From the NCBI GenBank assembly GCA_031268795.1, contig JAIRWT010000010.1:37117-101116 (forward strand): DNA of 64,000 nt, in the 5' to 3' direction. This DNA comes from Puniceicoccales bacterium. GTDB lineage: Bacteria > Verrucomicrobiota > Verrucomicrobiia > Opitutales > JAIRLM01. Position numbers: made by a program. Shown here one piece after another: positions 3,001 through 6,000 of this stretch; the stretch's first letter is position 1, and the number at the start of each line of letters is the position of its first letter.

Positions 3001-6000
3001 ACTGTTTACGAAACATTTGTTGAAGATTTTTTAGCGTTGCGCAGACAAACATACGAGTTGCTTGAGGTGCGTAAAATCGAAATCAACCTTCACGAAAACG
3101 ACGGAACAAACATTAATTGTATAGAAAATCCACAAAAAGCTTTAGTCAATATCCAAAATTCTCGGAAGGAGTTTCTCCGCAAAATCGGTATGAATAAAAC
3201 TGGCCATTACACTCATGCGGGTAAAGGTCATAAAGTAGGCGACCAAGTCGATTCGGTGTTGCGTGAAATTGATAGTAAATTTGCGGCCATGGAAGAATAT
3301 GCTGAACGACTGTGTCATATGGGCAAATTGCACGGACGGGAAGATAACCGGCCGTTGACGGACGAACAGTTGGAAGAATTCGATTCCCGGCTTCAACGCC
3401 TAAAAGACAGGTATGCCGATGACCGCGCTCTTCCATAACGTGTACGAACCCGGCCATAGAGGTGGTCTTTACGCGACTGCTCCATGAAACGCGAATCTCA
3501 AAAGTCATTCGAAAAAAAAGTTGGATTCAAAACCCCGATCGCAAAGATGCTTTTTTTCTCGCAAAGTAAATTTCTGAGTATTAGTGTTAAATTTATTAAA
3601 AAATGCTAACACTCAGAGACTTACGGGCGAAAGGCCGGGGCCATTTTGAACCTTTTCGCCATTTCACCCAAATCCAAAGAGGTTTCCCGGGTTTTTATGG
3701 GTTTTTCCCTAAACTTTTCCGTTCGCGGCCAAAACCAATTTTAGGAATGAAAAATCCCGTCAGGGACCCGTCAGCGATTTTTTGCCACTTTAGCCTAATC
3801 GCCCCGCAACCCGCACCAATTGCATGGTAGGCCGACAGGGATTCGAACCCTGAACCAATGGCTTAAAAGGCCACTGCTCTACCGTTGAGCTACCGACCCG
3901 ACAAAGAAATTGCTATGGAGGCATTGGGTTTTGGTCAATAATTTTGCAGGAGATGGAGGAAAAAATTTTGCCAACTTGCTTCTAGGCAGAACGGATGGTT
4001 GCTGCGAATTGTTTTTTAATGCGATCGCACAAAGCTAAAATAATAGTTGCAGAAAATTATCGTTGCGCATATCATAATTGCGATGAATTCGGTGGGCGTC
4101 AGTGCTAGAAATTGGGTCGGGGGGCACTTGCAAGCTTTAGGTGTAACAACGAAAGATCTTCATGGCATTTTACACAAGCACTTGGCAGGGACACAAACGG
4201 AAAGTGTCAATTTCAAAAACCTTGTCGGCGCACTGCCAGAGGGTACAATCGCTCGTTTAAAAGGCCAGTTTCCAGGTATTGCAGGCGAGAAAACAGATGC
4301 TGAATTTCTTTATGCGGTCATGTGCAGCAGATCTGGCGAAAATACACAGGTTCCAACGTTTGCCCACGGTGCTGTATTTTCCCGGCAAGTACCAGGCAAA
4401 ATTGCCTCAGCCTTTCCGCGGTCCGCCACGGAGCTCTCGAACGTGAGAGATCTGGTGTCTGCAACAATTGGTGATCTAAAATTGTCCGGCGGAAAGACCA
4501 TAGGAGAAAGCCGCGTAATAGGCGCTGCCCATTCGGTGGAATATATGGATTTGGAAGAAATGGCCCAAAAACTCGATCAAAAAACAATGAATTCCATAAA
4601 ATTACAACTACCAAAACCGACTCCTGCATCCTGCAAAACGCCCGGAGACCACCTTTTTCATTTTATGTGCATGCGGCTTGGGACGGACCGAGCAAAGTCA
4701 TTATCTTATCACGATGGCAAGGTGCGGGTTAAACGTGACCGTTCAAGCCAAACCCAAAAAAAGTTATCGCAGTCCGCGCAAGTACGTTCGCCCCATATGG
4801 ATGGGCCGGGAAAGTCCTCATCGGTGGCACCTGCGGAAATACGACAGTTGACGAAATCTTCCCCCGTGGCACCACCATCTGCTTCATCGGTGTCTGGCGC
4901 GTCAAGCGCAGCGGTTCAATCGGAAAATAGGAGCAAATTGATAGCTGCAACACGGTTAGATCTCACTGAAGAAATGTCTGACGGGACATTCATCTTTGAG
5001 GACCAAAATAAAAATAAACTTTTCGTAAAAGATGTTAACTTTTTATGTGAGTGTAAAAACTTGAACACATTGAATATCTTGGTTGGCGATTGTTTGACCG
5101 AGATTGATCTCAGCCTTTGTAGCAAATTGCAACACCTCAAATTATACAATTGTACAAAACTTACAAAAGTGACCCTTCCGCCCGGAAGGGGAGCAATGGA
5201 CGCCCATGGGTCTATCTCCGTAGGCCAATGCCCAGCATTTCCACAGGATATGGACCTTCGAAAGTTGAAAACAGCAAGTTCGGATGAATCCGGGCCAATC
5301 ATTTTCGAAAACGGGCAAAAAAGTACTATTCGTGCAGCAAAGTCATCCGCCGCCAGCCCTGTTCAGATGAGTGAAGATGATAAAAAATTATTGGATGCAA
5401 CAAAATTAATTTTCAAAGGGAAAAAGGATGGAAAATATGAATTTGATATTGGGAGCGAGGCTATAGCCATAGAAGATCTATCGCTTTTGTCGCAATGTAA
5501 AAATTTGCAAACTTTGACCATTGATGAGCCTTGTTCTGATTTGGAAAATTTAGATCTTGGCGCATGTAAAAATTTGCAGAGATTCGAATGCCGTTGGTGT
5601 GATAATCTCGCTGAAGTCAGATTCTCTCCAAGCGCAACATTACAATGCGTGCAATTTCAGGGATGCACAAGTCTTAAAAAAGTTACATTGCCCGTTAATA
5701 GATGTTTGCAGAATTTTGATGGAGACGGATGCCCTGTCTTCGCAGGCATAGTAGCAAATTTGCATATTCAAGCTGTCGCAAATGCCATTGAAGCGGACGA
5801 ATCGCTTGGAAACCCGCAGGATGCCGGAAGAAAGAAGAAGAAAATTTTTCAAAGGGTCACTGCGCAAATAGAACGAAATGACGATGGCACGACCACATTT
5901 ACCGCACCCGCGCCAAAAAAGAGATCATTATTCGCCCGCTTATTTAGAGGGAAATAACTAGGTGCGTGAACGGCGAAAGTCTTATGCAGTTTTTTTTGCC

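Follow-up and report, generated by a model that had tools for sequence, protein, structure and literature searches.

Introduction

Lineage-specific sequences placed just downstream of tRNA genes have been described before, in Methanopyrus kandleri, where a motif follows about half of the tRNA genes and a role in 3' maturation has been proposed for it (PMC5217627). The present study concerns a repeat of a comparable position in a bacterium: a short sequence, called the module below, that directly follows the encoded CCA end of three tRNA genes in 64,000 nucleotides (nt) of an uncultured Puniceicoccales (Verrucomicrobiota) genome (contig JAIRWT010000010.1, positions 37,117 to 101,116). This whole stretch is referred to as the window, and coordinates are those of the window. 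The module carries two direct repeats of the form CTGAnnnG, termed half-sites. Like the Methanopyrus motif, it is genome-specific and lies at a fixed short distance past a subset of tRNA genes, but the archaeal sequence, CGTTA-N9-TAACG, is short and palindromic and is found some 10 bp past the tRNA, whereas the module is a composite of about 56–96 nt with direct repeats, extending from position +1 (PMC5217627).

Other described systems share some of its properties. The arms of attachment (att) sites may also abut a tRNA 3' end and carry, a few tens of bp from it and close to A-rich sequence, short direct repeats that are spaced by about one helical turn, and their repeat sequence is expected to be element-specific; the module differs in having two repeats only, with no integrase or phage-type gene in the open reading frames (ORFs) scanned and no displaced tRNA fragment. 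Integrase and displaced tRNA fragment together are the defining marks of a tRNA-integrated island (Islander, PMC4383910). Escherichia coli 3'ETS-leuZ, representing RNAs derived from a 3' external transcribed spacer (3'ETS), likewise occupies the tRNA strand immediately beyond the 3' end of the gene, is non-coding and is released in processing, as the module potentially could be, but the module shows no similarity to it in sequence or structure, has no detected U-tail terminator, and is known from DNA alone. Repetitive extragenic palindromes (REP), bacterial interspersed mosaic elements (BIME) and miniature inverted-repeat transposable elements (MITE) are, like the module, short, non-coding, multicopy sequences of one lineage found in 3' flanks. 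The module is unlike them in lacking terminal inverted repeats, a target-site duplication and a dominant palindrome, and in that all copies seen are at tRNA 3' ends. Finally, operators of the OmpR/PhoB type and plasmid iterons have the same layout of a 7–8-bp direct repeat, a 3–4-bp spacer and a second repeat with an 11-bp period; in contrast, the module lies at least 170 nt upstream of the nearest promoter-like site, its core varies by copy, and it has no cognate protein or replicon.

Location and Similarity of the Module Copies

The repeat found after these three unrelated tRNA genes is genuine, is lineage-restricted, and matched no described family. Copy counts cover both strands of the window (128 kb), which holds three copies. 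Seven tRNA genes were identified by ARAGORN, and three of these (Lys, Tyr and Phe) carry the module; the trailers of the other four (Glu, Gln, Ser and Leu) are unrelated to it. In every copy, the related sequence begins at the first base past the encoded CCA and runs on the tRNA strand. This position and orientation are beyond chance, given three copies in 128 kb. The tRNA genes, module copies and their parts are as follows.

3825–3899, minus strand: tRNA-Lys(UUU), CCA encoded (ARAGORN; Rfam tRNA, 69.7 bits)
3729–3824, minus strand: module copy 1 (Lys), full length, about 96 nt (blastn against the Phe copy; nhmmer E = 6e-30)
3774–3802, minus strand: hairpin H1 of copy 1, GCGATT, 17-nt loop with terminal A-run, AATCGC (RNAfold, -10.1 kcal/mol)
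3756–3774, minus strand: tandem half-sites of copy 1, CTGACGGG-TCC-CTGACGGG
3729–3754, minus strand: T-rich tail and weak A4/T4 hairpin of copy 1, TTTTTCATTCCTAAAATTGGTTTTGG (conserved alignment columns)
60317–60392, plus strand: tRNA-Phe(GAA), CCA encoded (ARAGORN; Rfam)
60393–60488, plus strand: module copy 2 (Phe), full length (shared 36-mer; nhmmer; blastn)
60443–60461, plus strand: tandem half-sites of copy 2, CTGATATA-GCC-CTGATATG
38085–38170, minus strand: tRNA-Tyr(GUA), CCA encoded (ARAGORN; Rfam)
37996–38084, minus strand: module copy 3 (Tyr), significant similarity confined to the 3' ~56 nt (37996–38051)
38054–38071, minus strand: H1 variant of copy 3, GCGATT-TGAAAC-GATCGC (RNAfold, -6.9 kcal/mol)
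38024–38042, minus strand: tandem half-sites of copy 3, CTGATGAG-GCC-CTGACGAG

A preliminary description of this DNA had reported the same module after all three tRNAs. This is accurate over 96 nt for the Lys and Phe copies, which align without gaps at 82% identity (pairwise blastn, E = 4e-23 against the window), but the Tyr copy shares only the 3' half of the module, comprising the half-sites and the tail. It aligned with the Phe copy over 56 nt (77%, E = 8e-7) and with the Lys copy over 53 nt (72%, E = 0.02), and its first ~42 nt are just 36–40% identical to either. The description was also right that the Lys and Phe copies are almost perfectly shared in part, since they have an identical 36-mer, GCGGGTTGCGGGGCGATTAGGCTAAAGTGGCAAAAA, for which shuffled sequences gave an expectation of 0. 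Their identity is unevenly distributed, with 47 of 50 positions matching in the 5' segment, 12 of 22 in the half-site zone and 20 of 25 in the tail, so that 10 of the 18 differences fall within the 22-nt half-site zone, the most divergent part of the pair.

The pattern CTGAN5CCCTGAN3GGANTTNCATTNCT matched the window three times, each time within a module, and did not match in 100 shuffles. A profile built from the three copies found nothing better than E = 0.016 in the rest of the window, and that match lies inside an ORF. By these pattern and profile searches, all three copies in the window abut tRNA genes. The partial fourth copy that had been proposed at 38373–38397 (plus strand), away from any tRNA 3' end, was not upheld: its Smith-Waterman score of 26 lies within the shuffled-query null range (20–31), and the profile search misses it at E < 100. 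A sequence in the Lys copy, GGATTTTTCATTCCT (3740–3756, minus strand), closely resembles that of the tRNA-Glu anticodon arm, GGATTTTCATTCCT (2566–2588, minus strand). This resemblance (nhmmer E = 0.3) is confined to the Lys copy, extends to the tRNA-Glu genes of relatives, and was judged coincidental.

Module Anatomy and the Matched Half-Sites

In the Lys and Phe copies, with the first base past CCA counted as nt 1, the module comprises the following parts.

nt 1–22: G-rich leader
nt 23–51: hairpin H1, GCGAUU/AAUCGC stem, 17-nt loop ending in an A-run (-10 kcal/mol)
nt 51–58 and 62–69: direct repeats CTGAnnnG, starts 11 nt apart
nt 71–82: T-rich stretch TTNCATTNCT
nt 81–96: weak A4/T4 hairpin, CTRAAA-N4-TTTTRG

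The order of parts is fixed: 6-bp GCGAUU hairpin, A-run, two CTGAnnnG units, T-rich stretch and A4/T4 hairpin. RNAfold placed a GCGAUU-stem hairpin in all three copies; in the Tyr copy the 5' arm is unchanged, but its partner is a different sequence, GAUCGC, which follows a loop of 6 nt and lies within the region that forms the loop in Lys and Phe. From GGCGATT to the first CTGA there are 30 nt in Tyr and 29 nt in Lys and Phe, and the pairs of the A4/T4 hairpin are retained in all three copies.

The half-sites are the most distinctive part. CTGA-N7-CTGA occurs three times in the window, always within a module, and no 8-mer of the window other than that of copy 1 is repeated exactly at a spacing of 11 nt. 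The two triplets are copy-specific and matched within a copy, as previously noted:

Lys half-site triplets: CGG and CGG
Phe half-site triplets: TAT and TAT
Tyr half-site triplets: TGA and CGA

The order in which the triplets were first listed could be read as assigning TAT to Tyr, which is wrong, as TAT belongs to Phe. Relative to one another, the copies require three or more parallel double changes, and one pair of triplets, that of Tyr, is mismatched. A hand estimate put the probability of such co-variation at about 0.01 or less for these three sequences, but a column-permutation test, which is crude and ignores adjacency, did not find it significant, and three copies cannot prove co-variation.

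The arrangement of two 8-nt direct repeats with starts 11 nt apart is the usual geometry of tandem protein-binding sites. The suggestion that it arose as a replicated duplication fits poorly with the sequences. The bases after unit 1 are xCC and those after unit 2 are GAT or GGA, a contrast kept in all three copies, and since the unit flanks differ so consistently, a simple or perfect 11-nt tandem duplication was rejected, and with it repeated re-duplication of a perfect 11-mer.

Tests for RNA Structure and Coding Capacity

At gathering scores, Rfam reported only tRNAs across the whole window, and searches of each copy at E ≤ 10 returned noise, in which the highest score was that of snoR1 (18.9 bits; threshold 49). 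Folding stability did not exceed that of dinucleotide shuffles (z between -0.66 and +0.30). Helices of at least four pairs that persist in all three copies were searched for exhaustively, and a two-sided change was seen in none of them; the covariation term from RNAalifold was +0.9. With three sequences, these tests have low power. Because z is near 0, no compensatory pair was found, and no Rfam family matched, the module's behaviour is not that of a folded RNA, in agreement with the earlier view that direct-repeat co-variation does not denote an RNA hairpin.

Several specific candidates were considered and rejected. Sub-threshold C/D-box snoRNA matches were obtained for the Tyr copy alone, via CUGAUGA...CUGA, and the likeness of this motif to a hammerhead or C/D box is confined to that copy, with Rfam giving only noise. 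A small ORF is not indicated: the open frames on both strands begin in the tRNA or enter its antisense, and have no start codon; by a hand count from the alignment, the variable positions are split evenly over the three codon positions. A decayed tRNA gene, or a fold resembling that of a tRNA, was called by neither ARAGORN nor Rfam. Read as a sigma-54 promoter, TGGCAAAAAATCGC would have its spacing off by one, and it is missing in the Tyr copy, and an extension of the 3' hairpin into the flank gained no support from folding. Pairing of the half-sites with the acceptor stem or leader of the cognate tRNA, or mimicry of these, involved 4–8-nt matches in a register that differs per copy, and is attributed to coincidence.

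Distribution of the Module

For searches of sequence collections, the exact pattern CCCTGAN3GN3TTNCATTNCTNAAA was used, which has 18 specified bases and fits all three copies. It was scanned against 185,579 species genomes, the JGI metagenomes and IMG/VR, and returned 16 genome, 16 metagenome and 6 viral matches, equal to chance expectation, most of which read as coding. The upstream CTGA half-site was present in none of these 38 matches, and none of the genome and metagenome loci that were checked for tRNAs adjoins one. A second pattern gave 0 matches in the viral collection, and no phage or plasmid sequence resembling the module was recovered by blastn.

Regions of related genomes, totalling about 150 kb (loci L017–19 and L042–50), were fetched via homologues of MreC, Der and pyrophosphate-dependent phosphofructokinase (PPi-PFK); they derive from JGI samples 3300042590, 3300042606 and 3300042618 and from Logan runs SRR147109xx. 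These closest retrievable relatives show protein identities of 78–81% for Der, 80–83% for PPi-PFK and 66–71% for MreC. The module profile (nhmmer --max) had no match in them. An orthologous module in the fetched regions should have been visible, since orthologous non-coding DNA is still alignable, as read directly from the tRNA-Glu to der spacer of the window and of one relative (L048). The tRNA-Glu–der pair is syntenic in relatives with no adjoining tRNA-Lys, and so is the block of a hypothetical gene and PPi-PFK, with no adjoining tRNA-Tyr. A tRNA-Phe identical in sequence to that of the window occurs in the relative at L017, located elsewhere and with an unrelated trailer. None of the three module-bearing tRNA sites is syntenic in relatives, and no orthologous empty site could be aligned. 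The module-bearing tRNAs thus appear to lie at positions unique to this genome, and given the general rearrangement, a link between this and the module is only suggestive.

Searches for Mobile-Element Signatures

Pfam and PHROGs were used to scan 34 larger ORFs lying in the nearest 2–7 kb to either side of the copies. None of these ORFs matched an integrase, an excisionase, a transposase or a phage-like family, and the search for a cognate integrase that had been proposed earlier was accordingly negative for these ORFs. The family matches obtained were to housekeeping, leucine-rich repeat (LRR) or pseudopilin-like proteins, and the remaining ORFs match nothing. No displaced tRNA 3' fragment was found in the window by blastn-short with the last 45 nt of each tRNA; this search yielded T-loop matches to other tRNAs, chance matches of at most 10 nt, and one gapped 18-nt match on the wrong side (E = 1.7). 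Of the earlier proposal that the half-sites are paired protein sites or an att remnant, the 11-nt geometry of tandem sites stands, but neither of the two marks of an integrated element was found by these searches. The marks of REP or MITE elements were equally lacking in the three copies, with no inverted-repeat arms within a copy and no end duplication.

Discussion

The most economical reading of the module is that of a lineage-specific, non-coding, cis-acting cassette in the 3' flank of a subset of stand-alone tRNA transcription units, because the copies are tied to the 3' end and orientation of tRNA genes, are patchily conserved, and have no mobile-element genes among the neighbouring ORFs scanned. 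It is adopted here tentatively, as an explanation with rather less than an even chance of being correct. If transcription is assumed, the tRNA promoter would read into the module, which would then form the tRNA trailer and the zone in which the transcript ends or is trimmed to CCA. The half-sites, one helical turn apart, may serve as a tandem protein-binding site, either as DNA or as unstructured RNA, outside any helix. Copies could have been spread or homogenised among tRNA genes by recombination, and this would explain why Lys and Phe, at 94% identity in their first 50 nt, nevertheless have sharply different half-site zones. The matched triplets might mean that the two half-sites are required to be alike, or might result from slipped-strand copying between them. 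Conservation between Lys and Phe is patchy, which speaks for constraint or mosaic exchange and not for uniform decay. The next predicted signals lie just beyond the module, which places it just upstream of them at two loci: a sigma-70-like promoter at the Phe site (60628–60655, 11 of 12 positions) about 140 nt past the module, and a terminator-like site of the convergent gene at the Tyr site (37922–37935) about 50 nt past it.

Several results weigh against a cassette of this kind. Since four of the seven tRNAs in the window, and the identical tRNA-Phe of a relative, do without the module, it is not needed for general tRNA maturation. When an intrinsic terminator was defined as a G+C-rich hairpin of at least five pairs with a T-run directly after it, no terminator-like site was found inside any of the three copies; the CC/GG hairpin preceding the T-rich stretch has only 2–7 pairs, and its stability ranges from -10 kcal/mol (Lys) to -3 kcal/mol (Phe). 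A host protein that binds every copy would also be expected to keep the half-site sequence constant across copies. The copy-specific triplets are poorly explained by the cassette, and the binding protein is only putative.

The triplets are best explained if the flanks are eroded attachment-site arms, that is, element-side flanks of the P'-arm type derived from related integrative elements, in which the repeats were arm-type integrase sites. This is the sole hypothesis that directly predicts copy-specific, internally matched repeats, as these would be integrase-specific. The similarity starts exactly at the tRNA end, where an att identity block would end, and the direct repeats, with starts 11 nt apart, lie 42–69 nt from that end beside an A-run; arm-type sites of lambda and mycobacteriophage L5 share this geometry. 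None of the three sites is conserved in position among relatives, and in one relative MreC is preceded upstream by genes for an integrase and a DDE transposase, but the genome is generally rearranged relative to these relatives, and the loss of synteny is not specific to the module-bearing sites. Neither a Phage_integrase or phage-like match among the scanned ORFs nor a partial tRNA 3' copy downstream was found. Three independent deletions, each sparing only about 100 nt, would be required, and the occupation of three of seven tRNAs within 64 kb would be a high rate. No phage with such an arm was recovered by the pattern scans of viral contigs or by blastn against phages and plasmids. Strong as it is on the triplets, the att-arm reading fails on both the integrase and the displaced-fragment searches, and is considered unlikely.

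We give a similarly low probability to a functional trailer RNA that would be co-transcribed with the tRNA and then released from its precursor, as the 3'ETS-leuZ sponge of E. coli is. The duplicated 7–8-nt motif would provide two identical sites, for pairing or for protein binding, to a copy-specific partner. The module has the position and strand of a 3' external transcribed spacer, it contains conserved blocks that look single-stranded (CCCUGA and UUNCAUUNCU), and its stable 5' hairpin and 3' A4/U4 hairpin could protect both ends. Tandem identical motifs are also a feature of RNA sponges. Set against this are the lack of an Rfam family, a folding energy equal to that of shuffled sequences, and the lack of any compensatory pair or U-tail terminator. 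No complementary half-site partner common to the three loci was found from -200 to +350 nt, a range covering tRNA, leader and flank, and the module was not found in relatives.

Neutral repeat DNA is likewise an improbable account. In a symbiont-type genome with heavy rearrangement, recombination, whether illegitimate or homologous, would have copied a piece of tRNA flank from one tRNA gene to another. Here the triplets would have no function and would reflect template switching between the CTGA...G repeats, or chance at n = 3, in keeping with the non-significant, generic column-permutation test. The module has been seen in one genome and in none of the ~150 kb from relatives with alignable non-coding DNA, and the genome contains other short dispersed repeats. 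On the other hand, neutral spread is not expected to place all three copies at the first base after CCA and in tRNA orientation. The clustering of Lys–Phe differences (10 of 18 within 22 nt) is unlike uniform decay, and the contrast between the flanks of units 1 and 2, kept in all copies, argues against repeated re-duplication. Least probable, and in our view quite doubtful, is an undescribed class of tRNA-3'-linked element with the matched hypervariable 3–4-nt cores as specificity determinants, which would imply that the cores co-evolve with a copy-specific recombinase or DNA-binding protein, or are paired guide-like segments of a trailer RNA, and that the element, possibly together with its tRNA gene, could relocate, as would fit the tRNA positions not shared with relatives.

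If the matching of half-sites holds genome-wide, the module would illustrate in compact form how direct repeats that carry specificity can be attached to tRNA genes. This would bear on tRNA genes as landing or relocation points in symbiont genomes, and on the termination of tRNA transcription units in Verrucomicrobia, which to our knowledge is essentially unstudied. If the matching fails, the module would be one more lineage-specific intergenic repeat, of use mainly as a marker of genome rearrangement in this lineage.

Neighbouring Genes and Other Repeats

The genes near the three sites are these.

Lys site: Der, tRNA-Glu, two LRR paralogues, biotin/lipoate ligase
Tyr site: sigma-54 activator, two small membrane-protein paralogues, hypothetical protein, PPi-PFK, thymidine phosphorylase
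Phe site: DnaJ, GrpE, radical-SAM protein, MreC, three pseudopilin-like genes

Effector-like genes had been reported next to each site. The two LRR paralogues 5' of tRNA-Lys agree with this, but the Tyr and Phe sites do not, as the other neighbours are MreC, pseudopilin-like proteins, PPi-PFK, the sigma-54 activator and hypothetical proteins. At the Phe site, a pair of ORFs of the size of PheS and L20 lies between the radical-SAM gene and MreC, and was named from synteny alone. Individual genes are located as follows.

4047–5957, plus strand: first of two tandem paralogues directly 5' of tRNA-Lys, with weak LRR matches
6037–7467, plus strand: second of these paralogues
9011–9082, plus strand: tRNA-Gln
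31628–33736, plus strand: flagellar export gene flhA (FHIPEP family)
34826–36127, plus strand: sigma-54 enhancer-binding response regulator
36872–37591, plus strand: hypothetical glycine-rich membrane protein
37561–37911, plus strand: adjacent hypothetical glycine-rich membrane protein, converging on the tRNA-Tyr module
60662–62107, plus strand: three ORFs read as pseudopilin-like genes

The LRR paralogues are 88% identical over the first ~300 nt, and in the relative at L042 a single LRR gene adjoins the same biotin/lipoate ligase gene. The two glycine-rich proteins have a common C-terminal motif, HFTPWGV-x2-IFR-x2-D. In the pseudopilin-like group, the prepilin N-terminal methylation motif scored above the Pfam cut-off in the first ORF and just below it in the second, and the third has no family match. 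The tRNA-Gln gene does not encode CCA, and seven consecutive T begin 6 nt beyond its end; the genome thus has more than one kind of tRNA 3' end.

Relatives carry a eukaryote-type ubiquitin hydrolase (UCH), a phage-type integrase and fragments of DDE transposases (L043, 2332–3933; L019, 632–1951 and 2852–3235; L048, 4332–4601), none of them near a module-like sequence. UCH and mobile genes in these genomes fit a host-associated lifestyle with mobile DNA.

Two further repeats were seen in the window. A second dispersed intergenic repeat, with the consensus GATCGCAAAAATGCTTTTTTTCTCGCAAAGTAAATCTCTGAGCATT, has four copies of about 45–55 nt:

3529–3582, plus strand: second repeat
19062–19107, plus strand: second repeat
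21800–21853, plus strand: second repeat
54640–54697, minus strand: second repeat

One copy lies 20–70 nt upstream of an ORF starting at 3508 (minus strand) and another lies between convergent genes, and the repeat could be a promoter or 5'-untranslated-region element, or an element of terminator regions. A 30-nt repeat with 93% identity occurs at 3488–3517 and 23939–23968; on the minus strand it reads TTTTTTCGAATGACTTTTGAGATTCGC and forms the start of an ORF beginning MTFEIR, which suggests a small paralogous gene family, or pseudogene fragments, with a common start region.

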